The notes beneath the pieces are model-generated. The model did no database searches. It had not been told where the DNA came from and worked only from the letters and a program-made list of their open reading frames with translations. Both the position numbers and the translations under genes were made by a program. A DNA stretch of 64,000 nucleotides, taken from NCBI GenBank assembly GCA_025336685.1, contig GCA_025336685.1_4717.1. One strand, written 5' to 3'. The DNA comes from Escherichia coli (GTDB taxonomy: Bacteria > Pseudomonadota > Gammaproteobacteria > Enterobacterales > Enterobacteriaceae). Below are positions 6,847 to 64,000 of the stretch, one piece after another; position 1 is the first letter of the stretch, and every line of letters starts with the position of its first letter.

Positions 6847-6928
6847 CACGTCCTCCTGAAAAAGAAAAAAGAAATACGGCATAAAGCCTACCCACACAAT
6901 GGTGGGTAGGCTAAGATCAACATCGATG

Positions 6929-7441
6929 TTAAACTTCTTCGTTTTCTGAACCTAATGATTCAGCATCTGGATCGTCAACAGGAATTGTTGCGTCAAAATA
7001 CCGTTTCGTATGCGTGGTCGTATATCCTACACTATCTGTGATGGAAATCGTAAACGTGACTTCTCTCGCACGGATTAAGCGTAGTTTATTCATGAAGTTA
7101 CGGAACGGCATCGATCCCCGATTCAACTCCTTAATGACGTTTCCTCGAATACTGGAAATGTCTTTATTCGTTTTATCAGGATGTCGTTTCTTCACATCAC
7201 GCATATGTCGGGTAATATACGAATTGAGCTGATTTGCGCCGATCCCTCTCTCCGTATAAATCTGCAACAGGAACTCCGTAAGGAAATCCTGTCTACCCGT
7301 AGGCGTCCAGAAATTGTTACCGTGATTGTAGTTAGTCGCTCGTCCTCGATTACTTTGAGGATTTTCATCATCGTTTTCGTCACAACGCTTAAGCGGATTA
7401 ATGCGTGCTCGGAAAGAGACTTCATTATATTTATTTGTCAT
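6929..7441 (-). CDS. Hypothetical protein (start moved to ATG at 7441)
   Basis: ATGA stop/start overlap with the upstream gene 7438..7953 suggests translational coupling. Confidence 0.5.
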   Translation of the reverse strand: MTNKYNEVSFRARINPLKRCDENDDENPQSNRGRATNYNHGNNFWTPTGRQDFLTEFLLQIYTERGIGANQLNSYITRHMRDVKKRHPDKTNKDISSIRGNVIKELNRGSMPFRNFMNKLRLIRAREVTFTISITDSVGYTTTHTKRYFDATIPVDDPDAESLGSENEEV

Positions 7442-7953
7442 AATACACCAGTGTACTGACTGAGTGCGAAGGTTAGGAGTTCGCAACAGTCTCTCGCTAG
7501 TTTCCTTGTTTTGCGTAATCCATAAGCCGCATCCAAATCGTCACGTTCTGCCAGCGCGTCTAACCACGTCGCAAGTATGCGTCCATACTCGATAACGTCA
7601 CGCATGAGAACGTCGAACTGGATAACACGACCATCGGCATCAGCAAGCCAACGATTGAATGTGATTTGTGGTGCTAGTATTGCATATGTTCTCTCCTCTA
7701 ATGCTATTATGTTTATGTTGCCTTCGTTATCGAACGCTTGATGCCAACGGCGAAGGTCAAGCATCAACGACTCAGCGTCCATATACCACAACGGTAAATA
7801 CGTTTTACGTGCAACGCGTATATCGTAGATGTTGTGAACCCAGGACGTTGTTTTATAAAGCAACAAGAGTTCGTTTAACCGTTGCCTATCATCTTGAAAC
7901 GTCTTCCTTTTATAACGTTGGAATGCACGCCTCAAGAAAAAGCGATGTAACAT
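7438..7953 (-). CDS. Hypothetical protein (171 aa)
   Basis: ORF in a co-directional minus-strand block; divergent from 8087..8716. Confidence 0.5.
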   Translation of the reverse strand: MLHRFFLRRAFQRYKRKTFQDDRQRLNELLLLYKTTSWVHNIYDIRVARKTYLPLWYMDAESLMLDLRRWHQAFDNEGNINIIALEERTYAILAPQITFNRWLADADGRVIQFDVLMRDVIEYGRILATWLDALAERDDLDAAYGLRKTRKLARDCCELLTFALSQYTGVL

Positions 7954-8033
7954 GGCATCACCTATGTATCATTCTTGCAGGCATCAATGAAACCATCACA
8001 AGAAGGTAACGTTATACGTCGCCTCCATGACAG

Positions 8034-8054
8034 TCATCATGAAGGTAATATAGT
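8034..8054 (+). promoter_or_regulatory. Conserved 21-mer CATCATGAAGGTAATATAGTC (candidate promoter), about 32 nt upstream of the 8087 start
   Basis: Identical 21-mer recurs at 35790..35810; contains a TATAGT (-10-like) hexamer with ATGACA 16 nt upstream at this site. Confidence 0.45.
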
Positions 8055-8086
8055 CCTGTTATTTTTTTCAATACGGAGAATGTAAA

Positions 8087-10113: not shown

Positions 10114-10788
10114 TTAGCCCTCATCAAGGTTATTCTGGAGATGCATTGCGGTGAGAATAACACCAACTGCCGAAACCGATTTTGCCTTGCTGTCTTCGGG
10201 TAGCTGTTCCAAGCTTACGGTACCTGTTTCTAACAGCATGCGGTTCATCGCGTTGAACTTCTTATCGTCGCCACCACGAGCCTGCATTAACTCTCGGTTC
10301 ACGTTCGGCATCGATCGTCCTAACGTCGCTTGCATTTCCGGCTGACTCCAAGTGGAACCTTTACTATCACCCGTCGGCTGATTGGTGAGCTGGTCCTTGG
10401 TGTTGTTGTTTTTCGGAATCGATATTTTAGCACTCAACGTTTCGGCTTGTCGGCGGTTTGGAATCAGGTACAATCTGGTTGGACGATCACGAAGCACCAA
10501 TTGTCCTGTTTTCTGATCGGTGAGATAAACGCGTTGGAAGAAAGGGAAACCGTATTTCTTGCCGACTTCCAGTGCGCGTTTTATCGTCACCTCGTTTTTG
10601 TTCATATTGGGTACCCAGATGGGTAGAATCTCTTTCTTATCCCGACATAAACGCATATACGCATCAAACGTCTCATCATCGATTTCAGCAAAACGTTTTT
10701 TGTAAATAGCGTAGGTCGGACTCGATCCCCCCACCAGGTCTTTGATATACCCAAGAATGAATTTTTCTGCTGCAGCGCGGTTGGACAT
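10114..10788 (-). CDS. Hypothetical protein (224 aa)
   Basis: Tightly packed minus-strand ORF; no motif recognised. Confidence 0.5.
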   Translation of the reverse strand: MSNRAAAEKFILGYIKDLVGGSSPTYAIYKKRFAEIDDETFDAYMRLCRDKKEILPIWVPNMNKNEVTIKRALEVGKKYGFPFFQRVYLTDQKTGQLVLRDRPTRLYLIPNRRQAETLSAKISIPKNNNTKDQLTNQPTGDSKGSTWSQPEMQATLGRSMPNVNRELMQARGGDDKKFNAMNRMLLETGTVSLEQLPEDSKAKSVSAVGVILTAMHLQNNLDEG

Positions 10789-14537: not shown

Positions 14538-15980
14538 TCAGACTCGCGATATGTTACCGCGTACGCTTTCGTTTCCGGCGATGCTAAATAGCTCAAGTTC
14601 AGACGTTGAGGCAGGTCTAACCCTACGACATGGTACAAGACGTAACACCCTGCTTATCGGGGTCAGTCTGTAATTCACGTCCACCTTCAAGCTTTTCGTA
14701 ACCTGCGTAATCGCACTATGCACTTTGGTAACCGTTTTACCTTTCTTATCCTTTTCTGTTTCGAAAAGAACGTCGGTAATTTCGGTTACGACCAGACGCG
14801 GTGTGGATTCGCGGTTAGCGTCAAGCCATTCATCCAGTAACGTCTTTAAGAAGTTCAAGGAATCAATCGCACGCCAAGCAAGGTTAGGCGGATTGCATGC
14901 TTCCATTAAAATGGCTGTGTTCGATCCACCTAGCGGAAGATGCACGCTCTTACCGAGGCCTGTCGGACGCATCGTAAGATCGCACTCACCCTCAAGAATA
15001 TCGCGATGATGTTGACGATGATGAAGGTTATCCGTGTATGCGATATACACTGACTCCGTTGTCCCATGCTCTAATACCCGAGATGCATGCGTACGCATAA
15101 TCTCAATAGCATCATCCGGCTTGCTTAAATAGATAACACTGTACGCGCTATCGCTAATCCTTTTCCCTAACTCAAGACGTCCCTTGTTGTCTTTATCGGT
15201 GTTACCACCGAAATAGATGTAGCGACCATCTTTCGCACGCTCTTGCTGCTGATTGGTGGTAAAGTAGCAGCGCGAGAACGTAAAGAACGGACTTATTTCC
15301 GGTTCGGGACTCCAATACCCCTTAGCCGGAAGTTCGCGACGTATTTGGGTTCTTACAGCCCAGTCCTGGTTTTGTGATAGATATGTTCCACGCGTTGCCA
15401 ACATATCCGCACGTTCGTTACCAACATTGCCCTCATGTCCAGGAACGTAACGCAGCGAAATATCGATAGCGTCGCGCTTCGCATCCCTTATCGCACTATC
15501 GAGTTTCCGCCACCGTTCCGCATTCATTAACGGTTTATTGTCGGATTTAACCCAGTTGTTCTCTCGCCAGTTAGCAAGATGGTTGGTGGCACCTACAACA
15601 ACATATTGGCTGTCCGACAACAGCTGGATCCGTTTTGCCCCCTTTGCTTTTCCAAGTTCAATCGCACGTATTGCAGCATCCAACTCAGCCTGATTGTTCG
15701 TTACGTTGAAACCCAAAGCCTCTAACTCATCCACGTATTCCTTGGGTTCGACCAGCACAGCGTCTTTAGGAAAGTTGAGTTTAGGGTCAACATAACCGTA
15801 TTGTGTTGGTTTGGGCTTTCCACTTTTTGAAGGTTCCAAGGTGCCTTTTATTTCTTTCACCATATCGTAGGTGTAGCCATGCACGCCATAGCCACCATAC
15901 CCACTCGATGTTGGACGGGATCCTCCATCACAGTAGAAAACGGCACCAAGCTCAGTATTTCCTGCCATTGTAAACCTCAT
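14538..15980 (-). CDS. RNase H (RNase HI-like) domain protein with about 250 aa C-terminal domain of unknown function
   Basis: Catalytic-site pattern: FYCDGGS (Asp), NNQAELDA (Glu), LLSDSQYVV (Asp), VPGHEGNVGNERADMLA (His/Asp). Confidence 0.65.
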   Translation of the reverse strand: MRFTMAGNTELGAVFYCDGGSRPTSSGYGGYGVHGYTYDMVKEIKGTLEPSKSGKPKPTQYGYVDPKLNFPKDAVLVEPKEYVDELEALGFNVTNNQAELDAAIRAIELGKAKGAKRIQLLSDSQYVVVGATNHLANWRENNWVKSDNKPLMNAERWRKLDSAIRDAKRDAIDISLRYVPGHEGNVGNERADMLATRGTYLSQNQDWAVRTQIRRELPAKGYWSPEPEISPFFTFSRCYFTTNQQQERAKDGRYIYFGGNTDKDNKGRLELGKRISDSAYSVIYLSKPDDAIEIMRTHASRVLEHGTTESVYIAYTDNLHHRQHHRDILEGECDLTMRPTGLGKSVHLPLGGSNTAILMEACNPPNLAWRAIDSLNFLKTLLDEWLDANRESTPRLVVTEITDVLFETEKDKKGKTVTKVHSAITQVTKSLKVDVNYRLTPISRVLRLVPCRRVRPASTSELELFSIAGNESVRGNISRV

Positions 15981-18600: not shown

Positions 18601-18633
18601 CCCTCCTCCTTCCCATGTTGGGTTGGAGGAGGG
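18601..18633 (+). terminator. Hairpin CCCTCCTCCTTCCC-loop-GGGTTGGAGGAGGG, member of a recurring hairpin family
   Basis: 14-nt arms with a central TT/TT mismatch, immediately after the stop of 17968..18594. Confidence 0.55.
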
Positions 18634-18647
18634 TTATGCCGTCAAGC

Positions 18648-18694
18648 AAAAAAAAAAAAAATGATAGCCACGGACCCTCCAATGAAGGAGGGTC
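18648..18694 (-). terminator. Minus-strand terminator candidate: hairpin GACCCTCC/GGAGGGTC followed on the minus strand by a U14 tract
   Basis: 8-bp stem at 18673..18694; A14 homopolymer at 18648..18661 on the plus strand; located just after the stop of 18707..19411. Confidence 0.45.
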
Positions 18695-18706
18695 GTGACC
18701 GTCAGT

Positions 18707-21160: not shown

Positions 21161-21178
21161 CTAGGTAATATAGCCGTG
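21161..21178 (+). promoter_or_regulatory. Promoter-like motif CTAGGTAATATAGCCGTG in a divergent intergenic region
   Basis: Shares the AGGTAATATAG core with the 21-mers at 8034 and 35790; lies upstream of the plus-strand gene 21283..22104. Confidence 0.35.
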
Positions 21179-31126: not shown

Positions 31127-31543
31127 TTATCTTCCTCGATTTTCTAGTTGAGACACAATACCATCAGCAACGTAATGCAACTGGACATTAAAATCCAACG
31201 ACGATACTGCGGAAATTGACCAGCAGGCATTTGAAGCCCAATACAACCCACCTACACCCAAAGAGACTTCCCACGTTAACTTCGTTATGACGTCTCTAGC
31301 TCGCTGTTCACTATATCGAAACGCGTTTTCCAACAATGTTTTTCCCGTTTGTGAACATAAAAAGCAAAGTTTCACATCTGTGCCGGTCTTTTCAAAATCA
31401 AACAATCGAAAATGGTCAACCAAAGAGGGGGTGGAGGCTAGGCATTGCAATGCGTCTTCCAATGCAAGATGGTCTAGCGTTTCTAAGTTTTTGCATGGCT
31501 GCTTTGGTGCGAGTGCGATTGATTTGTGGAATACAACATTCAT
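31127..31543 (-). CDS. Small protein, paralogue family A (3 of 3)
   Basis: LCFLCSQTGKTLLENAFRY ... TWEVS. Confidence 0.5.
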   Translation of the reverse strand: MNVVFHKSIALAPKQPCKNLETLDHLALEDALQCLASTPSLVDHFRLFDFEKTGTDVKLCFLCSQTGKTLLENAFRYSEQRARDVITKLTWEVSLGVGGLYWASNACWSISAVSSLDFNVQLHYVADGIVSQLENRGR

Positions 31544-31591
31544 GATTAGTTCCTCGTAGTGTTAAGTGGGGACAGATGTGTCCCCGGATAG

Positions 31592-32062
31592 TTAGATTAC
31601 ATCCCAAGCCGTGTTAGGTATGGGTTGATTACGATCGATGTAATACATCACGCTTTCTTTAAGCTTGGTTAACGCGTCAGCAACGATGTTCTCCACGGTT
31701 ATCACCTTTTCCATGTTGCCCATTGTATCCTGCCATGTAAACCAATCATTGATGTTATCGATGTATAGGGACTCATCGTCATCCGTCATGACCTGTATAT
31801 TTTCACGGCGATCGCGGGTTGTATACAACGGTGTTTGTACATTCGTTCTAACACGCGTCCAAAGCTTCTCTAGAAAGTTCGACGGTTGATTATTCGTAGC
31901 GATAATAAGCTCACTACGTACTGAATGTTCTCCTCGCTTTTCAATAGCAAATAAACCATCGTAAGTGATGTTCATCAATTTACGGAGGTCATCGTTGCTG
32001 TTCCAGTCTTTTACAACAGCAGGAAGTCGGCTATTGTAACCTTCAGGCAATCTCTCAATCAT
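31592..32062 (-). CDS. Hypothetical protein (156 aa)
   Basis: ORF in the same co-directional block. Confidence 0.45.
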   Translation of the reverse strand: MIERLPEGYNSRLPAVVKDWNSNDDLRKLMNITYDGLFAIEKRGEHSVRSELIIATNNQPSNFLEKLWTRVRTNVQTPLYTTRDRRENIQVMTDDDESLYIDNINDWFTWQDTMGNMEKVITVENIVADALTKLKESVMYYIDRNQPIPNTAWDVI

Positions 32063-32492
32063 CGGTTTCTGCTCCTATATCACGTTTGAGGTCGGCCATC
32101 AGTTTTTCATAATGGTCTTTTATCACGTTCGCAATAACGAATTGCACTTTTCTCACTAGCTGCTCATCGGCATCACTGAATGTAAAAAGCTCACACACAT
32201 CAATCGGTTGTGATGCACCACCAATACGGTAGGTTTTAGTCGATGCGCGCTCAGCAATGACGGGGAGCGGTTCCACAGCGTTCAGTGCGGTACAGATTTC
32301 CGTAACGAGTTCTTGAATGCTGCTTCTGCCTTCGATAATAACAGAACAGCGATAGACATCCACCTCGTTAAGCCGTTCAACGACATCCGCCCTGATTTTG
32401 AAATTTCCAATAAGCGAGCTCACCAAAGTGCTATGCCAGTTGTTCACCACCCCGACCAACAGCGGATGATTCTCAAGATCTCTTCTATTCAT
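32055..32492 (-). CDS. Hypothetical protein (145 aa)
   Basis: ORF overlapping the downstream start by 8 nt (coupled). Confidence 0.45.
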   Translation of the reverse strand: MNRRDLENHPLLVGVVNNWHSTLVSSLIGNFKIRADVVERLNEVDVYRCSVIIEGRSSIQELVTEICTALNAVEPLPVIAERASTKTYRIGGASQPIDVCELFTFSDADEQLVRKVQFVIANVIKDHYEKLMADLKRDIGAETDD

Positions 32493-32571
32493 CAGTTAGC
32501 TCCTAAATAGCGCTACAACTAATTTTTAATGGAAGGGAATATGTTTCCCTTCCTTGGGTTAGTTTAATGCG

Positions 32572-32847
32572 TCATGCAGCTTTACAGCTCGCGTAACATA
32601 CCAGTGTTCCGTTGTTGATTGCCTCAACAACATCCTGGGTCAGTTTGGTCGCAAGTTTATTATCCGCACTCGGTACGTAATAACCTTCTCCTGTTTCAGT
32701 GACTAGGCGATAACGTACTAATCCTACCGCACGCTCGACGCGTAGCACCTTTTCAAGTTTGTGTTTGATGATCTTCGTCAGGCTGACGGCGTCTGATGCG
32801 TAGATTGCTTTATAAACCTTGTTCTTTGCTGTCGGTTTCATCAACAT
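32572..32847 (-). CDS. Small hypothetical protein (start moved to the internal ATG to avoid overlap with 32870..33703)
   Basis: The track ORF 32572..32910 would overlap the upstream gene by 40 nt; the internal start gives MLMKPTAKNK... Confidence 0.4.
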   Translation of the reverse strand: MLMKPTAKNKVYKAIYASDAVSLTKIIKHKLEKVLRVERAVGLVRYRLVTETGEGYYVPSADNKLATKLTQDVVEAINNGTLVCYASCKAA

Positions 32848-32869
32848 GGTTTCTGTTTTCCTTGGTTTA

Positions 32870-33703
32870 TCACGATGCCAGGTCAGCGATATCCCAATGG
32901 GTATAACCAACCTCGCGGATGAGCTCTGCTGTCTCTTCGAACAGTGGGGTAGGGCTAATAACCGGTAACCATTTCCCCTCTCGGGTTATCTTGACTTCGA
33001 CGGTCTGTAAGTTCGTGTTCCAACGAACATCATAAACCAGCGCATAGCCAAGAGGATGAACAAGTCCATCTTGGTTATATGTCTCCAAAAGACCTCGTAC
33101 GTCTTCTTCGTAGGATGTTTTCGACAAGACAGCACGTACTCGTCGCAGCCTCTTCGTGATAACCTTTCCCAGCTCGATGCTCTCCCAGCCTGTCATGACG
33201 CAAGGATTACCATCGCGACGAAGAGACCGAGAAATATAAATAGAATCGTTCGTGGTAAGGTGTACCCACCCAAGATCGCAGTATGCGACAGGTCGTGGTG
33301 ATTCTCCTTCGATAACCGTCGTTTCATCCAACATCGCCACAACACCGCAGTCTGCGAACTCCGGCGATACTTCATCCAGCATCTTAATACGGCTTTCTTG
33401 GCCGGTATGGTCAGGATCGACATGCGCGTAGTAGTAATTAGGCTCTATCGCACGGTATTGCGCAATGCTTCTACGGAAGTCGGTATCCTGCATTCCCAGC
33501 GGGTGGTGATACGCAAGCTGTTGCTTTATACCATCCTTGATTACCAACAGAAGATCTTCGCGATCTGATGCGGGATCCTCCACCACGATGTATTTAACAA
33601 TCGCTTTCAGGTTCTTAACGATGCTATCTGGAAGTTTCTCAATATCCCGCGCATCATAGACACGGTTAACTACAGTGTTTACAAGGTGTTTTGATAAGCT
33701 CAT
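32870..33703 (-). CDS. Paralogue family B protein (1 of 3), function unknown
   Basis: Shares an HPLG(F/Y)-containing C-terminal domain and a (Y/W)(H/Y)PLGMQD N-terminal motif with 33781..34638. Confidence 0.55.
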   Translation of the reverse strand: MSLSKHLVNTVVNRVYDARDIEKLPDSIVKNLKAIVKYIVVEDPASDREDLLLVIKDGIKQQLAYHHPLGMQDTDFRRSIAQYRAIEPNYYYAHVDPDHTGQESRIKMLDEVSPEFADCGVVAMLDETTVIEGESPRPVAYCDLGWVHLTTNDSIYISRSLRRDGNPCVMTGWESIELGKVITKRLRRVRAVLSKTSYEEDVRGLLETYNQDGLVHPLGYALVYDVRWNTNLQTVEVKITREGKWLPVISPTPLFEETAELIREVGYTHWDIADLAS

Positions 33704-33780
33704 CGATGATCTCTCTTTGTTATTTCTACCGATAACGCGGCATAAGGGGACAATGATGTCCCCGTGTTAGAATCAACTAC

Positions 33781-34638
33781 TTACGGCTTCAAATCCGAAA
33801 TATCCCATCGTACGTAACCTGTACGCTCAATTTCATGAACCAGTTCCTCGGTTTGTTTCTCAACACCGACAACGGGAACCCAATTCAACTGTTGGGTGCG
33901 TTTACCGATGTTAACCTCGACACGCTGCAGATCATCATTCCAACAAACCCCAGCCGGTTTCACAAAACCCAGCGGGTGGATAAAACTAAGATCGTCGCTG
34001 AAATCACGAAGAACGCGCAACGTATCGATGGTTGAAGGGTTATCACAGCGAACAAGGCGTACGCTTTGCAATTTATCGTATACCGCTCGAGCTACACGTT
34101 CATCGCGCCAGTTCGTCATGAATACCGGTTTTATACCACGTTTTAGAAGATGATCGATCTGGATTGCGATGTTATCGTGAACATACATGCAACCCTGTTC
34201 GGTTTCGGTGTTGCAGCCACCGTCCTCTAACCGGTTCGGATACGTCTGATGGTCTACCGTCACAGCAACTCCTTCAGCGAGCGTGGTCAACGGAAGAAGA
34301 CGTTGTAGACTCGTTATTGGATAATCAGGCGACATCCCAGGACGGATATGCGCCATCGTACCCCAACTGTCAGGGAATCCGTGTCGGTATGTGTATTGCC
34401 TGAATACCTCATCCTGCATCCCTAACGGATACCATCGTGCAAGCCGCTGTTGCTCGCCATCCTGAATAACAAAAAGCATTTCTTTGCGATTCGGCCATCG
34501 ATGATGTTCCACGGTCAAGCCATCAACAACCGGTCTTAAGTTGACTTTGATATGCTCGGGAAGTTTATCCACCTCTTCGCGACGGTAAAATCGATCGACG
34601 ACGATGATATCAACCTTCCCGTGATTGAACCAATTCAT
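33781..34638 (-). CDS. Paralogue family B protein (2 of 3), function unknown (start moved to ATG 34638, MNWFNHG)
   Basis: WYPLGMQDEVF and IHPLGFVKPAGVCWNDDLQRVEVNI align with the other two family members. Confidence 0.55.
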   Translation of the reverse strand: MNWFNHGKVDIIVVDRFYRREEVDKLPEHIKVNLRPVVDGLTVEHHRWPNRKEMLFVIQDGEQQRLARWYPLGMQDEVFRQYTYRHGFPDSWGTMAHIRPGMSPDYPITSLQRLLPLTTLAEGVAVTVDHQTYPNRLEDGGCNTETEQGCMYVHDNIAIQIDHLLKRGIKPVFMTNWRDERVARAVYDKLQSVRLVRCDNPSTIDTLRVLRDFSDDLSFIHPLGFVKPAGVCWNDDLQRVEVNIGKRTQQLNWVPVVGVEKQTEELVHEIERTGYVRWDISDLKP

Positions 34639-34926
34639 GTTAACTCCCTCTGTGGTGCGAAAACAAAACATCTAATTGCTCCCGTTGTTCTTTTAAGTAT
34701 GCGGGAAGCTGGTCTTCCCGTACCGTTCCGATTTCCAACGTGATATACCAGCGTTGTTCGGAAGCCTGCCATTGAAAACTGCTCTGTAACCGCAGGATGC
34801 TAGGATCGTGTACCTTGCTTGCACTGTAACGGTTGAACCAATTCAGGTATCCTGCTTTCCCTTCCTCATCAGCAACGTAACGCTGCACGCTGTTCTTCCC
34901 TTTGTTTTCGTATCCTGTTGCGTGTA

Positions 34927-35709
34927 TCATGCGAACGTTTCTCCTGTAACGTGTTGTGGGCGTTGTAGCATGGTAGCATCCCATTGTACGATCCGGCTCC
35001 GGCTTACCCGCATCATGACGGATTCATCGTCAAGCCCCGGTTGCGCAACCGGCAACCAACGTTCGTTAAGCACCTTCGCTTCAACCCGTTTCTTGCGTGG
35101 GTTGTAACGCACCTCGCTAACCCAAGCGAATCCAAGCGGATGCACAACCCGTGGATAATACGTGCGAAGCAATTGATGCATCCGATCCAGTACCTCCAAG
35201 CTCGCATCGGCCATGTATGGTTTCACCATGGTAAGCTTTTTGGTGTAATACGTCCCAACGGTATGGTTCGCCCACCCGGGAAGCACGTGATGGAATCCTA
35301 CCTGTAATTGTGTATTGCCGTTCACCTTCAGCCAACCGTATTGTCCAGCCGCACGTCCCTCGTCAGTATCGATCCATGTAAGTATATCGATGAACGCACG
35401 ATCGGTGATCTCGATGCGTTCCACCCGTTCATCCAACGCACCACGTACCACGAATCCGCTCGCGCTCACCCGCGCAGGATGCTGGCTGCGATGCGCGTAC
35501 CAATTCTTGTTGCCGGTAAGCAGGTAAGGGTACGTGTGAGCACCCCGCCAAACAACCGTTCCGTTCGTCCCATCAACACAGTGTACATACATCCCATCTT
35601 GACCGTTGTTGTAGCATGCTACCTTCACGCATTCGTTTTGAACATCGCTCGGTAACGCCAGGTATTCACCTTCGGTAAACATGGTATCAAAAATGATTTC
35701 TTCGTTCAT
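34927..35709 (-). CDS. Paralogue family B protein (3 of 3), divergent N-terminus
   Basis: C-terminal VHPLGFAWVSEVRYNPRKKRVEAKV aligns with VHPLGYALVYDVRWNTNLQTVEVKI of 32870..33703. Confidence 0.55.
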   Translation of the reverse strand: MNEEIIFDTMFTEGEYLALPSDVQNECVKVACYNNGQDGMYVHCVDGTNGTVVWRGAHTYPYLLTGNKNWYAHRSQHPARVSASGFVVRGALDERVERIEITDRAFIDILTWIDTDEGRAAGQYGWLKVNGNTQLQVGFHHVLPGWANHTVGTYYTKKLTMVKPYMADASLEVLDRMHQLLRTYYPRVVHPLGFAWVSEVRYNPRKKRVEAKVLNERWLPVAQPGLDDESVMMRVSRSRIVQWDATMLQRPQHVTGETFA

Positions 35710-35789: not shown

Positions 35790-35810
35790 CATCATGAAGG
35801 TAATATAGTC
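35790..35810 (+). promoter_or_regulatory. Conserved 21-mer CATCATGAAGGTAATATAGTC (second copy)
   Basis: Exact 21/21 identity with 8034..8054; sits at the left edge of the AT-rich region, pointing into it. Confidence 0.4.
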
Positions 35811-36415
35811 GTGAAAGGATTTGCATTAAAGCAAGGGTAATTGTTTTGTTTTAAGAAGGGATGGATGATAGCGGTATCTGAAAGGAGAAGGATTTTAAGG
35901 AAGGTCTTGATTGAAGTAAGTGAAGAGGATGATTATTTCGGTTTAAGTAAGTAGGTAAGTTATCGTGTTATTGTTTTTTGTCTTAATGGTTTTATCGTTT
36001 TATCTGTTGTTTATATAAATCAAATTAAATTATAAAGTCAGTTAAGATGTTGGTTAACAACGTTCAACTCAAAAAACCATTTGTGATACTCTTCTTCACG
36101 TTGTTCATCAGAGTATCTCGTCTATACTCATTGCATTCGTATACGACATAACCGTTATACGCTAACGCTACGCTTATAGCTTGATAACTCTAAGGATAAA
36201 AACATAAACTCGCTTCGCTCGTTTAGTTTTTCTTTTTCTTAGAGTTATCCTGTTGCTCGTCTCTAAAGGACTTCGCTCCTCCCCCGTCCCCCGAAGGGGC
36301 CGAGGTCGTGGAAATTTTACTTTCCAAATACATTTACAACATCTGTAAACTTTTACTCCAGGTACTTAATCTTATCATTAGAAATTATAAAGAGAAGAAT
36401 AAACACAAACATAAA

Positions 36416-36447
36416 CCTTCCTCCAACCCAACAGGGAAGGAGGAAGG
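36416..36447 (-). terminator. Family hairpin CCTTCCTCCAACCC-AACA-GGGAAGGAGGAAGG after the stop of 36461..37354
   Basis: 14-nt arms with one mismatch; on the minus strand it is followed by a T-rich run. Confidence 0.55.
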
Positions 36448-36460
36448 GATACAATGGTTA

Positions 36461-41159: not shown

Positions 41160-43754
41160 TTATAACGTGACTGTACCTAATTTGGTTGTCTTATTGAGAT
41201 TGATGACAGAGATCTGGGTATCGCTGGTCGTAATCGTTCCGATGTTAACGCGCTGCCCTTTATCATCTTCTTGCTTGTGGATGGTTAACTCCAATTCTAA
41301 CTGGTTACCGTTAGGAACAACGGAAACGTACCACGTTTTATTACCTGGCGAACTATTATAGTCTTTTAGGTTATAATGGCCTTTAGGTAAAGTCATGGCC
41401 TTACCAGCAAACAAGCAAGCGATGTCTTCGTTGATGTAGATATCGTAACCGGAAGCAGCAACGACCGTAGAAACCATGTAGACATGTTTGACGGTACCTG
41501 CGAGGTATTCGGCTACGCTTGGCCCATATGCTCTGAATACCTGTCCGCCATTGGATAAACGGTACGCTTCCCCAAGGTCGACGTACCCCAGACCCCATAC
41601 CGGATGGACGTTGTAACGACGTCCGCTGCTGGCCAAATACTCATAAAGGTCATCTACCGATAACCCAACCCACGCACCACTGGCGTTCTTAGCACCACGG
41701 AATTGAAAATCGTTTGCGTTTCCTGGAGTAGCAACGCGCACGGACATCGCCCCGGCGATTAACCAACCATCAGCGCATTTACGATACCCTAATGGTCCCC
41801 ACGCCCCCAGAGTGTTGTCAATGTTATTGATTTGGTCCCGAAGCGTGTAAGTTACCGTTGTGATGACCCCCGTTACGGTAATGTTCCCTTCCCGAGCGCT
41901 GGTCGTCACTTCAGACGTCATGATAGCCGCCTTCCTGGAGACAGGATCGTACACCGATATGAACATCAAGCAGGGGGCCCCTGTGGACGCTGGAGGAACC
42001 ACGATAGAGCCGCGTATAACGGAGTATCTCTCAAGCTTCGGCGACGTGTAGGTATCCCAACAAAGTTTGGCCGCTCTGTCGAGTTCTGCCTGCGTGATGC
42101 TTATCGATGCCCCCTTTAAGGCTAACGTATCAGGGTCGACCTCAACCCTGCTGCTTAATCTCCCTTCCTGTAGCCAGCTGCCAGTCACTATCGTCTGGTC
42201 GTCGCTCATGTGAATTGTCGCGAAACGTTCGCTCACTGAACCGCCTACGTGGACGCGACTGGTTGGCGGGAATCCCATCACATCGACCACGCTGTTCTTA
42301 TAGCGATAACTCAAATCCCAATCAGCGGTTATTAACCGCTTTTCGAAATTGCTCTGACCCCCTGGGATGCGGGATAAGACATAGACCTTGTTCTTCGCCG
42401 TGAAGCCAACGAAGCCGTGTGGACCACAGGACCCAACAACGCGGTCCTTGATGTTAATCCAGTTCCCCGCCTCGTACGCGGATATTGGGGTGAGTTTTGC
42501 AAGTTCGTCGAAGACATTACCAGCGTAGTCACCAATGCGATACGATCGAACCATCGGCGAGGCCAGGTTATCATTCACACAGCTGGTAACCAGACCGTCC
42601 TCGCGAATGACCATGTTCCCGGTAAGGTTGGCCCCACCCCATACCCAGAATCCGTCTTTATAATCACGGTCACGAGTTGACATCGTACAAGGGCCACGAA
42701 AGGACACCGAACCATCGGAGTTCACTTGTAATGACGGTGTTCCAGCATTGGGACTTAATGTCCATTGCTTCGTATCCAGGTTCAAATCGACGTACCAGAT
42801 CGTTGTCCCCTGATCGGCGATATTCACGGTACTGTTAGTGTACCATGCCGTCGTGCAGTAGATTCGCGCAATGTTACCTTTTACAACAGCGTAATTTCTA
42901 ACACCCGCACGAATAGGGACAAGCGTCGTTAATTGACTAGGGTACGCTGTATGGTTTAACACTTCCCAGAAAAGAATATGGTCGAGGTTGGTTTTCGTCG
43001 TTCCCTCAAAAATCTTTCCACTAAACCCGGTTTCTTTGGTGAACTGTACGGCCGCACCATTTTTAATGTCCGATAACATACAGGTATGTACATCGAGCCC
43101 GTTTTTCCCTTCATACGCCCACCAGACTAACAGGTACACTTTGTTTTTGTAGACGAACGTACTACAGCGCGCCATGCTGTCGGTAATACCCTCTACCGAC
43201 CCGGTACACATGGCGGCGACATGCTTCTCTACGTTGAATGTGCCGTTAGTCAGAACGATGTAGGGCTGTGTGTTCTCGTCGTTTGCGTCCATCGCGACAC
43301 CCATCATCACGCCGTGGTTATGACACCAGACTGATTGTGGGATTTTAGGTAGTGCTGTAGGGTTGTACTGGCGACTGGTACCTATGGCGGTATCGAGCAG
43401 CCCTTCACCATTGTTTTTACAGATAGCGTAATACACCCCGTTTTTCATGCTGTTGGATGCAGAGCGAAGGATGGAAACACTCCCGTCTGCTTCCTGACAG
43501 ATTCCGTAGGTACGACGTTCGGTCATGGCTATCGCGCCATCAGCTGACCCTTCGATGGCGAGAGGGAAGTAACTTTGATCGCCAATTTGTTCGATATCGG
43601 TTACGTCAATATCAATGTACTTTTCCATCTCGGTGTTGAACTCTGCGGTGCTGTACGCGCCGAGATCGCCAGCCTTTAACCCTGTTGGATTGCTTCGACT
43701 AGCGATACGTTCGGTAACGCTGGTCACCAGTTCGCTAAATTTTTTCATTGCCAT
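41160..43754 (-). CDS. Large tail-associated protein (864 aa), possible tail spike or baseplate component
   Basis: Location between the tail fibre genes; no catalytic motif recognised. Confidence 0.5.
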   Translation of the reverse strand: MAMKKFSELVTSVTERIASRSNPTGLKAGDLGAYSTAEFNTEMEKYIDIDVTDIEQIGDQSYFPLAIEGSADGAIAMTERRTYGICQEADGSVSILRSASNSMKNGVYYAICKNNGEGLLDTAIGTSRQYNPTALPKIPQSVWCHNHGVMMGVAMDANDENTQPYIVLTNGTFNVEKHVAAMCTGSVEGITDSMARCSTFVYKNKVYLLVWWAYEGKNGLDVHTCMLSDIKNGAAVQFTKETGFSGKIFEGTTKTNLDHILFWEVLNHTAYPSQLTTLVPIRAGVRNYAVVKGNIARIYCTTAWYTNSTVNIADQGTTIWYVDLNLDTKQWTLSPNAGTPSLQVNSDGSVSFRGPCTMSTRDRDYKDGFWVWGGANLTGNMVIREDGLVTSCVNDNLASPMVRSYRIGDYAGNVFDELAKLTPISAYEAGNWINIKDRVVGSCGPHGFVGFTAKNKVYVLSRIPGGQSNFEKRLITADWDLSYRYKNSVVDVMGFPPTSRVHVGGSVSERFATIHMSDDQTIVTGSWLQEGRLSSRVEVDPDTLALKGASISITQAELDRAAKLCWDTYTSPKLERYSVIRGSIVVPPASTGAPCLMFISVYDPVSRKAAIMTSEVTTSAREGNITVTGVITTVTYTLRDQINNIDNTLGAWGPLGYRKCADGWLIAGAMSVRVATPGNANDFQFRGAKNASGAWVGLSVDDLYEYLASSGRRYNVHPVWGLGYVDLGEAYRLSNGGQVFRAYGPSVAEYLAGTVKHVYMVSTVVAASGYDIYINEDIACLFAGKAMTLPKGHYNLKDYNSSPGNKTWYVSVVPNGNQLELELTIHKQEDDKGQRVNIGTITTSDTQISVINLNKTTKLGTVTL

Positions 43755-57515: not shown

Positions 57516-57797
57516 TTAATTATTTCGAGAGGTTAACCACGATTCAATTGCGGTGAGGTTGCATTTCAGTTCACGCCAACTAGGGTGTGGTGGGATCACA
57601 GCACCTTTGTCAATTACGGTTAGCTGAACCTGGTATTTCTGTTGCATACGTGCTACCGTATCGCTTACCGAGAGGAAAAGCTGGTAACGTTCGTACGCTG
57701 TCAGTTCGCGGTCCTGATAAACCGCGTAGGTGGCTAACGTAACTTCGCGTAAGTCCTTTGCGTCCACAGAGACGGTGATGAGTTTATATTGACTCAT
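57516..57797 (-). CDS. Small hypothetical protein (93 aa)
   Basis: ORF bounded by the hairpin and the upstream gene. Confidence 0.45.
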   Translation of the reverse strand: MSQYKLITVSVDAKDLREVTLATYAVYQDRELTAYERYQLFLSVSDTVARMQQKYQVQLTVIDKGAVIPPHPSWRELKCNLTAIESWLTSRNN

Positions 57798-57859: not shown

Positions 57860-60418
57860 TTACTGCTCTTCACGTTCCAACAGATACTCGGAAGCGGTAA
57901 TACCGTTTACCGTACGTACCGCTTTCAGACGAGTATCGTCACTCAGAATCACGGTAACAGACTGCAGACCTTTTACTTTGGTCTCGAAGGTCTTGAATAC
58001 CTGATCCAGCATACGAGCAATGCTTGGGTTGGTTGCAGCCGATGCGTGAGTGTAACCGTTCTGGTTCAGCTTCAGAATCTTGGCGTTGGTTGGTACACGA
58101 AGAACAACATGCGGACGCATTGCGAACACACTGTGGTTAAACCAGTAAGCATCGTTACTATCTTCGTCAGTGACGATGTCTGGATTAACACGCATGTCTT
58201 CGGTAGCCGCACCCGCCAAACGACGTTCGATTTCGTCAGCATCCAGAGAGCCGTCCTTCTCCAGTTCTGCACGATACTCACTCATGGCAACCAGATGACG
58301 TTCACGATTCGCTGCAGATTTTTCGTGAGCGGCTTTCAGGTAGTCATGCATGTTGTACAGTTCTGCCATGGAAAGACGAATGTTCCACTGACCTTCGCCG
58401 TCACGATTGCAGTAGAGACACTTCAGCATGTTGACCCAGGTGTAGTAGCAATTGGAGAACTCATCTTCAATGAACTTCTGATCCATTTTAAGATCGTGAA
58501 TCAGCCAACCGGACAGTTCTCCGATATCATCAACGAAGCTAGAAATGGTGGTTTCAGAGAAGTTCTTCGGTACGATACGTTTGATCAGCTTGTTAACGTC
58601 TTTGGTCATGCTATCATTCAGGAAATGCCAGATACGCAGAGGAATGACATCACGATACTGTTGCATGATCTGACGATAAGCTTTGATATCGTCGCTACGA
58701 CCTTTATCAATAGACAACGCGTCCAGGAATTCATGGATAGCATCCAGCTCTTTGTCGGTATAGGTTCCCAGATAGGAATTGACCGTGGCAAGGAATGCTA
58801 ATGCGTCGTTTTGGTTGACGTCGGTGTTGGTCTGCTGAATGATCGCTACTGCAGCTTTGGTTTCAGCATCCTCAACGCTTGACGCTGCGATTGCGTCGGT
58901 AACAGTAAACAGTTTCATTTCGCGCTGTTCGCCGACAACGATCGGTTCGCGTTGAACCGGTTTGTTAAGACTAACGCGAACAACTTCTGCTTGCGCGATA
59001 CGATCCAGTTTTACCATTTCCTGCTCCGCCATACGACGAGCGGTCGGATCTGATTCAAGTTCGATGTATTCCACTTCTTCCTCCGTGAGGGATGTAATGT
59101 CAACAATGGTTTCATGAAGAATTCCGTTTTCGTCGATACGTGCTCGACGAGCGAAGTGTCTGAAGTCATACAACGTTGGCCAGCGACAATTAGGCGCATA
59201 GTCTTTGGCCTTCAGACGCATCTGCATAAATTCTTCATGTTGAACAACACGACCGTAACGCTTAGCATCTTCGGTCGCATCAATTGGATTAACGGTCTTT
59301 GTTACCGTAGCAGAACGAGCCGTACGAATGGGTTCCGGTTTAGTCTGCACTGGTTCAGGTTGAACGGATTTCTGTTGTCCAGCCTTAACATGCCATTCGG
59401 GTTCTTCGTACCGTTCAGCAAATTGCTCGGCTGCTGCAAAGATATCATTGATACCACCAATATCTCCTTCTGGATTCGTCGAATATATCCGTGGTTGCGG
59501 TGCCTCGTAACGCGGCGCTGAGGTAGCAGATGCGTCGTTAACGACAGGATCGTCATCGCCAACATCATACAAACGGTTGAACGCACAATCCTTCGAATCG
59601 ATGTACGATGGAGTTTGTGGTTGGATAACCGTCGGTCGAGGCTGTGCGCCGTATCCCGGCATTGTTGGAGCCATACCACGCATAACTGCTGGGTTAGGTT
59701 GGTATTGTGGTTGTGGGTAGGTTCCGCCATACGTGGGATATGCAGGCTGTTGCGGTTGACCGTACCCACCACCAACCATCGCATTTGCTTGCGGTCCACG
59801 GTAAGTCATCCCCAGTTGCATCACCTGTTGCTTCAGACCGCGGGACTTCTGCGCTATTTGTGCTAGACTCCCACTTTTATTTAGCTGCGTGTACTTATTC
59901 GCGGCTTCCGGGTTAATGCGCGATAATTCAATCGCACGATAATACTCCGGGTATTGATTGGCTTCAAAGAGCCACGTTACAAGGTGATACAGCGCAACTG
60001 TGCTCACAGCAGCAGAGACGATCTGGTCGTTGGACGCATTCTGCGGCATCGGGTTGATGTAAGAGAATACGTTCCAGCAACAGTCTTCAACAAGCGATTC
60101 CATCATCATGTCGTTATTGGTGTAACGTGAGACGAACTCGGTTTGTATTTTATCCTGTTGGGCGAAGTCTTTCAGGACATTGAAGACAGCTTGACGGATT
60201 TTGACGATCGTCGCTTCTTGGGTGATGAAGTTATAGTTCTGCTGATATGATGGTTGCTGGTACTGTGGTGGTTGATAGGTGTTATTCGGGTATGCGCTGT
60301 ACTGCGGTTGCTGGTACTGTTGTTGGCGAACCTGTTCAGCCGCATAATTAATCGTACTCGCATAAGGGTTTTCGTTGTAGCCCATTTGCTGATACATGTT
60401 GTTACTGCCATTATACAT
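57860..60418 (-). CDS. Large hypothetical protein (852 aa) with Gln/Tyr/Pro-rich low-complexity N-terminal regions
   Basis: N-terminal 65 aa (YQQPQYSAYPNNTYQPPQYQQPSYQQNY) and a second QPxY-rich segment around aa 215-270. Confidence 0.55.
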   Translation of the reverse strand: MYNGSNNMYQQMGYNENPYASTINYAAEQVRQQQYQQPQYSAYPNNTYQPPQYQQPSYQQNYNFITQEATIVKIRQAVFNVLKDFAQQDKIQTEFVSRYTNNDMMMESLVEDCCWNVFSYINPMPQNASNDQIVSAAVSTVALYHLVTWLFEANQYPEYYRAIELSRINPEAANKYTQLNKSGSLAQIAQKSRGLKQQVMQLGMTYRGPQANAMVGGGYGQPQQPAYPTYGGTYPQPQYQPNPAVMRGMAPTMPGYGAQPRPTVIQPQTPSYIDSKDCAFNRLYDVGDDDPVVNDASATSAPRYEAPQPRIYSTNPEGDIGGINDIFAAAEQFAERYEEPEWHVKAGQQKSVQPEPVQTKPEPIRTARSATVTKTVNPIDATEDAKRYGRVVQHEEFMQMRLKAKDYAPNCRWPTLYDFRHFARRARIDENGILHETIVDITSLTEEEVEYIELESDPTARRMAEQEMVKLDRIAQAEVVRVSLNKPVQREPIVVGEQREMKLFTVTDAIAASSVEDAETKAAVAIIQQTNTDVNQNDALAFLATVNSYLGTYTDKELDAIHEFLDALSIDKGRSDDIKAYRQIMQQYRDVIPLRIWHFLNDSMTKDVNKLIKRIVPKNFSETTISSFVDDIGELSGWLIHDLKMDQKFIEDEFSNCYYTWVNMLKCLYCNRDGEGQWNIRLSMAELYNMHDYLKAAHEKSAANRERHLVAMSEYRAELEKDGSLDADEIERRLAGAATEDMRVNPDIVTDEDSNDAYWFNHSVFAMRPHVVLRVPTNAKILKLNQNGYTHASAATNPSIARMLDQVFKTFETKVKGLQSVTVILSDDTRLKAVRTVNGITASEYLLEREEQ

Positions 60419-60453: not shown

Positions 60454-62250
60454 TCAATCGATTATGTCACGATCGTTAATTTCTACAATTTCTTCATCGA
60501 ATCGACCGACGTCTTTCTTCAAGCCTGCATTTGTTGCTGCAACGTCATTTGCGATTTGTGGGGTAACGATTAACCGACCACGCTCATCGATAGGTGCGTA
60601 CATACTGAACTTCTGACGTCCGGTTGGTTCGGAGTGTGGAAGATTCAGATAGCTTGCACAGAACGGGATGGAACCACTAACCAAACGACTCTCGTCAGCC
60701 AATGCAGCACCGCCTGCGTTTTGGCTCTGGAGAACAACATGCGTGCTCACTTTGAACAGCATGCAATCACCAGGTGACTGAATCGATGTTGCCACTTTCT
60801 CACGTTTATCACGATTGCTCTGGATATTGAGAATCGCTTCCGTTGCAACTTGATTTCGCAACGCCTTCTGTACATCGCGATTGGTCATCTCTTTACGGTT
60901 GTTCTGTCGTTTACCACGTTCCGTGGTTTTAAGATGGAACCCCAGTTTAAAGATGCTTTTACGCACATCCTCCATGACATATTCCAACACCATCAATTCC
61001 TTACCGAACATCGTCGTGGTATCAACACGACTCATTTCGATAGTAACATTGTCAATCAGATACGCCATAAATTCGTAGAAGTCGTCGCAAGGAATATTTT
61101 CCTGTTTGAACTTCTTCTGTTGAATTTCGTCAACGTAAAGATCGAGACTGTCGATGTGGTGGTTTACATCACGCAACAAACGCGCATCCGCATTGTTGTT
61201 ATTAAAGATAATCAAACCGAGTAATGTACGCCAATGGTCTGGCGCATTCGCGAACTCTTCAACCGGATAGTCTTCCGGGAAACGATCGTAATAACGGTCG
61301 ATGAGATATAAGAACGCACCGACAAGGCCAAGAACAATACGTTCCGTACCTCCACGTCTTACAGCGATTTGAATATCAGGATGTTTATAACGTACAGCGT
61401 TAGCGCTACGGCTTTTACCGCTTTTGCTGATACTAAAGCCTTTAGGAATAACCCCCATGGTGCGATAGATTACCCATTGGTCGCGCGGAAAATCACGTTC
61501 AGCAAGGTTCCGTCCGGTTACGGCTTCGACACCTGCAAAACGTCGGAAACATTCACCCACCCCATACTTCGCAAAGAGATAATGACCCAGTGTGGTTACG
61601 CTGGTGTGGTTGATGTTGTCACCGTTCACTTTACTTTGTTTGGTAAGATGATAGATTTGCGACCAGGGTAACGACAGATAATGACGATAATCGATACCCG
61701 TTGGTGTATCATTGCTCAGGAACTGATACGGTGTACGTTTAACCGTGATTTTGTCACGCGGAAGCATGATGAACGCCATGTCTTTCGTGTAACTGATTAC
61801 AGGGTCAGCGAGCACCGCACTGAGAATGAAGTTCGCACCACGTAGACGCATTTTACCACCCTGACCTACTGCGGGCAATAGGAGAGGATGTCGGATAATG
61901 CAGTAGTCCTTTCCCGGCTCACGGCGGTCACCTGATTCCATCGCACCGTACCAGCGGAATTCTAGCATCACCATAAACACGTCGGAAGGTGCAAGGTCGA
62001 AGGTCAGCTTACCGCTATCCTTCCCTTTGGTTTTCTTTCCTCCGCTTAAGTAGTGGAACTGTTCGCGGGCCATACAACGACGTAGGCCATGATACACCAG
62101 ATCCTTAGGTAAACTATCTTTGCTGTTCCGCCAAAGACGATCAACATAGGACTCAACATCTTGCATCTTATCGACGACGATGTTGCGTGCTATCTTCTCG
62201 TTCATCTTCGGTGCAAGCTCAGCGACAGCTTTGCAGAATCTAGGATCCAT
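60454..62250 (-). CDS. Hypothetical protein (598 aa)
   Basis: Long ORF; no motif confidently recognised. Confidence 0.5.
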   Translation of the reverse strand: MDPRFCKAVAELAPKMNEKIARNIVVDKMQDVESYVDRLWRNSKDSLPKDLVYHGLRRCMAREQFHYLSGGKKTKGKDSGKLTFDLAPSDVFMVMLEFRWYGAMESGDRREPGKDYCIIRHPLLLPAVGQGGKMRLRGANFILSAVLADPVISYTKDMAFIMLPRDKITVKRTPYQFLSNDTPTGIDYRHYLSLPWSQIYHLTKQSKVNGDNINHTSVTTLGHYLFAKYGVGECFRRFAGVEAVTGRNLAERDFPRDQWVIYRTMGVIPKGFSISKSGKSRSANAVRYKHPDIQIAVRRGGTERIVLGLVGAFLYLIDRYYDRFPEDYPVEEFANAPDHWRTLLGLIIFNNNNADARLLRDVNHHIDSLDLYVDEIQQKKFKQENIPCDDFYEFMAYLIDNVTIEMSRVDTTTMFGKELMVLEYVMEDVRKSIFKLGFHLKTTERGKRQNNRKEMTNRDVQKALRNQVATEAILNIQSNRDKREKVATSIQSPGDCMLFKVSTHVVLQSQNAGGAALADESRLVSGSIPFCASYLNLPHSEPTGRQKFSMYAPIDERGRLIVTPQIANDVAATNAGLKKDVGRFDEEIVEINDRDIID

Positions 62251-63723: not shown

Positions 63724-63876
63724 CGCTCACCTCCATCAGATTGAAAATTATCATGCATAACGCATTTCCCTTTTCTTGTTCTTATCAAACTGACAGCCGA
63801 CGGTTTCCAGTATCGCCCCCAGCGCGAGAACGACCTTACGTGTTGTCTATGCCTTATTAATCGCAGGCTTCTGTCA

Positions 63877-63895
63877 CCTAGGTAATGTAAGCGTC
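63877..63895 (+). promoter_or_regulatory. Promoter-like motif CCTAGGTAATGTAAGCGTC, related to the 21161 site
   Basis: Shares TCACCTAGGTAAT with 21156..21170; lies in the region upstream of the 62290..63723 start. Confidence 0.3.
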
Positions 63896-64000
63896 AAATT
63901 TTTTCTATTCGCAACGATAAACGGCATAAATCTCCCCCAACCCTTACGGGCTGAGGGAGGCTGACTTATGTATCACGGTGCCGGATGAATGTCCGCAATG

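Follow-up and report, generated by a model that had tools for sequence, protein, structure and literature searches.

A 21-mer repeated in a Goslar-like jumbo phage falls within two of four predicted early promoters

Introduction

Why should a sequence of 21 nucleotides occur twice, letter for letter and far apart, in the intergenic DNA of a phage? The question is raised by a stretch of 64,000 nucleotides (contig GCA_025336685.1_4717.1 of assembly GCA_025336685.1, filed under Escherichia coli), called the window below, which carries CATCATGAAGGTAATATAGTC on its plus strand at two loci. A first-pass annotation, made from the letters without database searches, took the repeat for a phage promoter with TATAGT as its -10 hexamer. 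The analysis described here keeps the promoter and turns it around. [quoted passage not shown]

Judged by its sequence, the window phage is a Goslar-like chimallivirus, a nucleus-forming jumbo phage. By megablast the window is 92-95% identical to Escherichia phage vB_EcoM_Goslar, a 237-kb nucleus-forming jumbo phage of the Chimalliviridae. It is colinear with Goslar 218642-237305 and then 1-43374, with diverging islands at 31141-34677, 35866-36066, and 41480-43531. About 83% of the genes in the window lie on the minus strand.

The repeated element

Exactly two copies of the 21-mer are present in the window, at 8035-8055 and 35790-35810. A third copy is absent from it even with up to 3 mismatches allowed, and 100 dinucleotide-preserving shuffles contain zero occurrences. 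Two exact copies are far beyond chance. The repeat as first annotated is therefore real, and the position given for its second copy (35790) is correct; the first copy had been placed at 8034-8054, one base low. The two related cores that had been placed at 21161 and 63877 likewise exist, but at 21163-21173 (AGGTAATATAG) and 63875-63886 (CACCTAGGTAAT).

Over 100 nt on each side, the flanks of the two 21-mer copies share 35% and 28% ungapped identity. This is the random level, which makes the 21-mer a discrete 21-bp element and not the tip of a larger duplication. A larger duplicated segment, one of the findings that the first-pass annotation had named as fatal to its own reading, is ruled out on this ground. 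On the minus strand the 21-mer reads GACTATATTACCTTCATGATG, and in that orientation it very likely represents the segment from -17 to +4 of two of the four predicted early promoters, where the conserved G is numbered +1.

The motif family

A mismatch search of the whole Goslar genome with CTATATTACCT, the core of one of the window sites, seeded a family whose sites share far more than this core. A first position weight matrix converged on 14 Goslar sites, all on the minus strand. A softer matrix spanning -36 to +3, scanned over both strands, gives these 14 sites 31-50 bits (21-46 bits when each is left out in turn) and the next best Goslar match 16 bits. In the window the same scan returns exactly four sites at 41-49 bits, with the next best match at 9.7 bits. 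The shuffle null of the window has a mean of 8.4 bits and a largest value of 13.7 across 20 dinucleotide shuffles. Recurrence of a promoter motif at four places, a claim of the first-pass annotation, is thus reproduced by the scan, which finds the same four. They are orthologues of the Goslar sites 226696, 2568, 15068, and 43267, whose predicted starts are 226681, 2553, 15053, and 43252. The predicted minus-strand starts in the window follow from the position of the conserved G:

P1, 8036-8074, minus strand: positions -36 to +3; core CTATATTACCT at 8053-8043; predicted start G 8038; 41.1 bits
P2, 21156-21194, minus strand: core at 21173-21163; predicted start G 21158; 49.3 bits, the best in the window; Goslar core 2568
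P3, 35791-35829, minus strand: core at 35808-35798; predicted start G 35793; 47.7 bits; holds the second 21-mer (35790-35810)
P4, 63873-63911, minus strand: core TTACATTACCT at 63890-63880; predicted start G 63875; 41.9 bits

P1 contains the first 21-mer copy, and its Goslar orthologue occupies 226681-226696. P3 differs from its Goslar orthologue (core 15068) at 2 of 21 positions; the T-to-C change in the core affects a base at which family members vary. Between these two phages the DNA from -45 to +60 of P3 is conserved, while the DNA upstream of about -45 diverges. P4 is identical to Goslar site 43267 over the 21-mer region.

The motif extends over about 40 bp in three patches that lie about one helical turn apart. 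The first is tAaT.cA at -35 to -29 (TTAAT near -35), the second is the T-rich TTTCACG at -23 to -17, and the third is CTAYATTACYT at -15 to -5, near-invariant in the 14 Goslar and four window sites. The start region follows, with three variable bases and then T(-1) G(+1) A(+2). In terms of sequence geometry, a conserved T-G with its G exactly 6 nt past TATATTAC is found in 17 of 18 sites and in all six promoters compared at chmA, the nuclear shell gene. The spacing of about 10 bp between patches suggests contacts along one face of the DNA. Two features of the first annotation do not survive this description. Its TATAGT hexamer comes from reading part of the real core, CTATATTAC, in reverse complement, and the upstream region that it described as unconserved is conserved on the minus strand (TTTCACG near -20, TTAAT near -35).

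Two weaker members of the Goslar family, at 151620 and 187625, score 31-32 bits. They deviate in CTACATAACCT..GGA and in an AT-rich -20 region that lacks CACG, and the site at 151620 precedes gp165, an RNA polymerase (RNAP) beta-like gene. Both may be attenuated early promoters.

The strict 24-nt form of the pattern is restricted to the lineage. Among 2.9 million IMG/VR contigs it is found in only 3, all of them Goslar-like, with 3-7 copies each. These three contigs are 90-97% identical to Goslar and to the window, and phylogenetic footprinting with such close relatives was set aside as carrying little information.

Strand and placement

Thirteen of the 14 Goslar sites are intergenic by the RefSeq annotation, against a noncoding fraction of about 7%; the remaining site lies inside an annotated open reading frame (ORF) of 62 codons, gp047. 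In the window, the ORF map confirms the earlier observation that all four sites are intergenic and adjoin gene 5' ends. Every member of the family (14 of 14 in Goslar, four of four in the window) has a same-strand start codon 25-205 nt downstream of its predicted +1. Goslar targets include chmA (gp246) and the RNAP beta gene gp165. A divergent plus-strand gene adjoins 5 of the 14 Goslar sites and is missing at the other 9, and the window sites at 35793 and 63875 have no plus-strand gene to serve. The best plus-strand scores are 8.9 bits in the window and 16.4 bits in Goslar, compared with 31-50 bits for the family. With no plus-strand site at the family level and no plus-strand gene at many of the sites, the orientation is settled: the motif faces minus-strand genes.

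The plus-strand promoter of the first-pass annotation, in which TATAGT drives 8087 and 21283 with host sigma-70 RNAP, as such or modified by the phage, as its reader, can be set against this placement and is hardly probable. It can draw on a sigma-70-like pair, ATGACA-16-TATAGT, that matches at 10 of 12 positions on the plus strand (8027-8054) and ends 33 nt before the ATG at 8087, and on the fact that two of the four window sites stand in divergent intergenic regions. The pair is a single match where 0.8 would be expected by chance, however, and 35790 lacks it. Under the soft matrix the window has no plus-strand site above the shuffle maximum, and the extended conservation fits the minus strand only, column for column with the putative early sites of phiKZ. 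The setting of infection also speaks against a host enzyme, as chimallivirus DNA shares its enclosure, first a vesicle and later a nucleus-like shell, with the phage's own polymerase (10.1101/2023.09.20.558163). The genes downstream of the four sites are instead those with minus-strand starts at 7953, 21133, 35709, and 63723.

The sigma-70-like pair at 8027-8054 overlaps the reverse complement of P1 and has no equivalent at the other sites. Chance is its probable origin; a bidirectional arrangement is the alternative.

Comparison with phiKZ and other jumbo phages

The leftward early promoters proposed here have close counterparts in phiKZ. The first 50 kb of the phiKZ genome hold seven plus-strand copies of TATATTAC and none on the minus strand. 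All seven, taken here as putative early promoters, continue with N5-TG and precede a plus-strand gene by 42-80 nt. One of them is upstream of PHIKZ054, the phiKZ chmA, for which a primary transcription start site (TSS) with the early motif has been mapped experimentally (PMC8244752). Applied to the same 50 kb, the Goslar matrix ranks the PHIKZ054 site first (24.9 bits, against a null maximum of 13.5). Its top five matches are all on the plus strand, and the four that were checked all adjoin a downstream gene. In Goslar, the site with a predicted TSS at 172964 lies 66 nt upstream of chmA, which is outside the window. The start is predicted alike in the two phages, so that the predicted 5' untranslated region (UTR) of chmA is 66 nt in both, and the two sites are nearly superimposable (GAAAAAAATTTCAGGGTTATATTACCTAGGTGAAT in Goslar, GAAAAAAATTTGAGATTTATATTACTAAATTGAAT in phiKZ). 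P1 also aligns without gaps to the PHIKZ054 promoter.

The match extends to more distant chimalliviruses. At the chmA loci of Erwinia phage RAY, Proteus phage 10, and Serratia phage KpHz_2, the top match of the Goslar matrix lies upstream of chmA and far above background. The top match in PhiPA3 is also upstream of chmA, weakly (10.2 bits), with the variant core TATATCAC. The ChmA proteins of the compared phages are about 24% identical to that of Goslar. An ungapped alignment of ten sites, comprising the four window sites and six chmA sites from six phages, has invariant columns at -34, -32, -29, -28, and -19, at six of the eight core positions (-14 to -7), and at -1 and +1; A-34, T-32, A-29, A-28, and A-19 are invariant across the six phages. 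TATATTAC-N5-TG is nearly invariant among the chimalliviruses compared, PhiPA3 having one core substitution.

The early promoters of phiKZ number 28-32 and have an AT-rich consensus (Ceyssens 2014, as cited in PMC8244752 and PMC10914365), conserved in phiKZ and in 201phi2-1 at -10, -20, and -30 (PMC11512511; PMC8244752). The Goslar-type motif shares with them an identical core octamer, TATATTAC, and an identical N5 spacing to T-G, as well as A/T-rich patches near -20 and -30, an intergenic and co-oriented placement, and a site upstream of chmA. The two motifs differ in several respects. In the Goslar lineage the core is lengthened to CTAYATTACYT, and its fourth base may be C (TACATTAC). At -23 to -16 stands TTTCACGR, which contains G/C, in place of the TTTAAACAG or TTTGAGAT of phiKZ. 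TGA is preferred at the start, and the strict pattern is confined to Goslar-like contigs. Starts are mapped in phiKZ, whereas those of the window phage are predicted.

A second point of comparison is the Bacillus jumbo phage AR9, in which early promoters have the form AAATATATATTAT-(6N)-G+1 and need no new protein synthesis (PMC5312081). Starts in phiKZ and phiR1-37 likewise fall 6 nt after the consensus element (PMC5312081). The window sites resemble the AR9 promoters in their extended AT-rich, -10-like element with TATATTA and in a G 6 nt downstream, in the window a predicted start, and AR9 has a reader of the class proposed here, a multisubunit RNAP packaged in the virion. AR9 differs in that its DNA contains uracil, it is not a chimallivirus, and its core ends in T rather than C. 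More broadly, reviews ascribe to every RNAP-encoding jumbo phage a bioinformatically predictable motif upstream of its early operons, AT-rich, some 10 nt in length, and with its centre near -10; wherever tested, it has turned out to be the early promoter (PMC7598289).

Early timing and the virion polymerase as reader would thus be the natural assignment for the window motif, and two other readers can be measured against the same comparisons. One is the non-virion RNAP (nvRNAP), which would make the sites promoters of a middle or late class. The two phage polymerases are related, and the gp040 target adjoins the major head gene, in a structural-gene neighbourhood. The phiKZ promoters of these classes do not resemble the motif, however. 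The late ones are a bare T-3 A T G+1, and the middle ones have a weak element, AT-rich or TACT, near -22 to -24. The start region of the window sites has T-G-A after variable bases, not TATG, and its strong upstream conservation is unlike a phiKZ late promoter. The motif fits instead the bioinformatically predictable class, which is early in every phage profiled (PMC7598289), and chmA is an early gene (PMC12908238; 10.1101/2023.09.20.558163). An nvRNAP promoter is very unlikely.

The other candidate reader is the host enzyme acting on the correct strand, with TATATT as the -10 and TTAATC, 16 nt upstream, as a weak -35 of a sigma-70 promoter. TATATT agrees with TATAAT at five of six positions, and TTAAT(C) is found 16 nt upstream in several sites, where it agrees with TTGACA at three of six. 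A/T-rich -10-like hexamers about 10 bp before the start are indeed common to both types of promoter (TATATT as read on the minus strand, TATAGT in the mistaken plus-strand reading). The differences are more extensive. The conserved block of the motif is 11 nt long (-15 to -5), no TTGACA-like -35 accompanies it, and the most conserved positions (ACCT after the -10, CACG in the spacer, TGA at the start) lie outside the sigma-70 hexamers. Conserved spacer and start bases are not sigma-70 features, and the virion enzyme works without a known sigma factor. Several family members have TACATT at -10, which matches at only four of six positions, and a sigma-70 scan finds no minus-strand promoter at either 21-mer copy. 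In Pseudomonas, phiKZ uses this same motif, and its infection there is independent of rifampicin (PMC7598289; PMC4666361). Recognition by host sigma-70 RNAP on the minus strand accordingly has very little chance of being correct, and a phage-encoded polymerase rather than the unmodified host enzyme, as the first-pass annotation had allowed, is most likely.

The exact identity of the two copies

Membership in one promoter family does not by itself predict that two sites agree at 21 of 21 positions. Under independent column frequencies, the chance of such identity between two family members is about 3e-4 per pair, or 0.002 for the six window pairs. Both 21-mer sites belong to the same sub-type, with spacer TCA followed by TGATG, and the orthologous pair in Goslar has 2 differences in 21, one at the variable Y of the core and the other at +4. 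The perfect identity is either a lineage-specific accident within the sub-type or the product of mild extra constraint.

This excess identity is also what a repeat other than a promoter has in its favour, such as a regulator binding site, a recombination or homing target, or the remnant of a duplication. The unrelated flanks do not fit a remnant, and the elements keep a strict orientation and distance relative to gene starts. A site of the same core and geometry stands upstream of chmA in six phages whose shell proteins have diverged to the extent given above, and the element lacks the internal dyad symmetry typical of repressor sites. The probability of a non-promoter repeat is close to negligible.

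Within the preferred reading as early promoters, the two identical copies and their Goslar orthologues might form a distinct sub-class in which the spacer and the first transcribed bases (CCT-TCA-TGATG) are under extra constraint. The near-invariance of TATATTAC-N5-TG would point to a promoter-recognition surface on the sigma-less virion polymerase that is fixed across the family. This extension is tentative and rather unlikely. If true, the constrained sub-class could allow a regulator to time part of the vRNAP transcription or to switch that part off, or it could tune promoter strength and escape.

A proposed course of early transcription

Reviews hold that vRNAP transcribes chmA and the nvRNAP genes first (PMC12908238). 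In Goslar, vRNAP is injected and is found with the DNA in the early-infection vesicle, and chmA transcripts reach wild-type levels when infection is arrested at the vesicle stage (10.1101/2023.09.20.558163). By this model, the window phage would package a multisubunit vRNAP in its capsid and inject it with the DNA. The enzyme would recognise the ~40-bp element and begin at the G 6 nt past TATATTAC, and leftward transcription would start within minutes of infection, inside the early-infection vesicle and without host RNAP. The transcripts would cover operons of mostly small genes of unknown function that begin at 7953, 21133, 35709, and 63723, and would run on to hairpin terminators.

One subunit of the enzyme proposed to read the motif is encoded in the window itself:

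RNA polymerase beta-like fragment gene, 10114-10788, minus strand: phrog_3233 'RNA polymerase beta subunit', E = 1.2e-65; orthologue of Goslar gp196

Goslar gp196 is a vRNAP subunit that has been tagged and is carried within the virion and injected (10.1101/2023.09.20.558163), and by orthology the 10114-10788 product would be packaged in the virion of the window phage and would be a subunit of the polymerase that reads the four sites.

Several observations weigh against this account. The starts at 8038, 35793, 21158, and 63875 are placed by geometry alone. P1 has the most deviant -20 element of the four, ATAACAGGA where the others have TTTCACGR. With 90-97% identity among the available Goslar-like genomes, it is weak evidence by itself that these particular four sites are conserved. 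A legend in the Goslar preprint places the first nucleotide of a chmA 'TSS sequence' 91 nt before the ATG (10.1101/2023.09.20.558163). A start at that nucleotide would fall 25 nt upstream of the predicted +1, in contradiction to the 66-nt leader. The same legend gives the same '91 nt' for the next gene, where the intergenic space is only 92 nt, and the figure is for this reason read as the left edge of the displayed sequence. Finally, 175 of 249 Goslar genes are detected at 5 min (10.1101/2023.09.20.558163), compared with 14 strong sites. This discrepancy implies long operons with leaky terminators, or other promoter classes.

Genes downstream of the four sites

The minus-strand genes that the four predicted promoters face are as follows:

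Downstream of P1, 6929-7953, minus strand: 7438-7953 (171 amino acids, Goslar gp200) and 6929-7486 (185 amino acids, gp201); predicted 5' UTR 85 nt
Downstream of P2, 20477-21133, minus strand: one gene of 218 amino acids from the ATG at 21133, Goslar gp004; predicted 5' UTR 25 nt
Downstream of P3, 29840-35709, minus strand: a run of small genes, the first at 34927-35709 (260 amino acids, gp021); predicted 5' UTR 84 nt
Downstream of P4, 57516-63723, minus strand: 62290-63723 (477 amino acids, gp040), 60454-62250 (598 amino acids), 57860-60418, and 57516-57797; predicted 5' UTR 152 nt

Pfam returns nothing for the 10 downstream proteins searched, and PHROGs returns families of unknown function and one 'polymerase', phrog_2943, matched by the 60454-62250 product (E = 5.5e-120). 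The P1 genes have no Pfam family, and of the two only the 185-amino-acid product matches PHROGs, weakly and with function unknown. The P2 gene product and the four proteins tested from the P3 run belong to no Pfam or PHROG family. Jumbo-phage early genes usually look like this, small for the most part and without an assigned function; no function is predicted for 76% of the early gene products of AR9 (PMC5312081).

The P3 operon contains a hypervariable island, 31141-34677, with little or no counterpart in Goslar. Two of its minus-strand ORFs, 32870-33703 (277 amino acids) and 33781-34671 (296 amino acids), match no Pfam or PHROG family and are found in other Goslar-like contigs only as patches of 70-80% identity. 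The island looks like a swappable set of accessory early genes. Upstream of P3 lies a gene-free region of about 650-850 nt (35830-36460; Goslar 14972-15825). Its plus strand is purine-rich, with AAGG and TAAG repeats, it is poorly conserved with Goslar just upstream of P3, and it has no Rfam match.

Terminators and a second upstream block

GC-rich hairpins followed directly by (T)TATGCYGT, rather than by a long U-tract, recur in the window and in Goslar. Examples are CCTCCTCC..GGAGGAGGGAA-TATGCTGT and GAGCCTGTCCTTCGGGGCAGGCTTT-TATGCCGT. The first base of TATGCYGT falls at these positions in the window, with about 25 more copies in Goslar:

Plus strand: 18635, 22135, 22788, and 48408
Minus strand: 63928 and 6883

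A hairpin with TATGCCGT forms the predicted terminator after the P1 genes, at about 6883-6925. Another predicted terminator, a hairpin with TTATGCCGT, stands about 50 nt upstream of P4, where TATGCCGT starts at 63928. Some hairpin copies directly precede a ribosome-binding site (6883), and others lie at convergent gene ends (48408).

The terminator motif of phiKZ is BCCYCCCCHWWDGGGRRGGBYTTATKYYGT (PMC10914365). The TTATGCYGT of the window and Goslar matches the published 3' part (TTATKYYGT) exactly, whereas the stem sequences differ in the Goslar-like phages, in which termination is predicted from the letters. Agreement with the phiKZ consensus makes the terminator signal, like the early promoter, common to phiKZ and the Goslar-like phages. 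A role for the hairpin and TATGCYGT as a late promoter, considered because TATG is the phiKZ late core, was rejected: the copies at convergent ends have no downstream gene, and the element fits the terminator consensus.

A further block, TATATGTAG(A/T), is conserved in Goslar (173060-173080), phiKZ (~45490), RAY, and Proteus phage 10, about 90-110 nt upstream of the early promoter of chmA. It includes TATG and may be the second promoter that has been reported for PHIKZ054. The block is not enriched in the window (2 matches against 11 expected) and was rejected there as a second promoter class.

The window runs without interruption through the start and end of the linear Goslar record (~18608-18700). 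About 50 nt are common to both ends of that record, among them a hairpin-TATGCCGT terminator and 14-17 A in a row. With a window continuous over them and a repeat of this kind, the record ends represent an assembly cut point and are not evidence of physical termini there. Searches of the window for Rfam families and tRNAs give no matches.

Significance

The first-pass annotation is right in kind, as the repeat belongs to a promoter for a phage polymerase, and wrong about the strand, the -10 element, the upstream conservation, and the target genes. The four window sites would be an ordinary and expected signal of the well-known early promoter class that chimallivirus vRNAP reads. Reviews place such a motif in every RNAP-encoding jumbo phage, so its presence would not surprise a specialist. 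Within the searchable literature, however, the Goslar-type consensus appears to be undescribed so far. No description of Goslar promoters is found there, the RNA sequencing preprint contains neither 'promoter' nor 'motif' (10.1101/2023.09.20.558163), and the Goslar RefSeq record annotates terminators only, with no promoters.

Goslar is the E. coli model for nucleus-forming phages, and the consensus with its predicted starts would outline the early transcription units of Goslar-like phages. The sites might also serve as compact orthogonal promoter parts, which should fire only when the virion polymerase is present, and as a substrate for studying how that polymerase, with no known sigma-like factor, recognises DNA. 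At the level of the family, the ungapped correspondence with phiKZ shows that chimalliviruses very distant from each other have kept both signals, the early promoter and the terminator.

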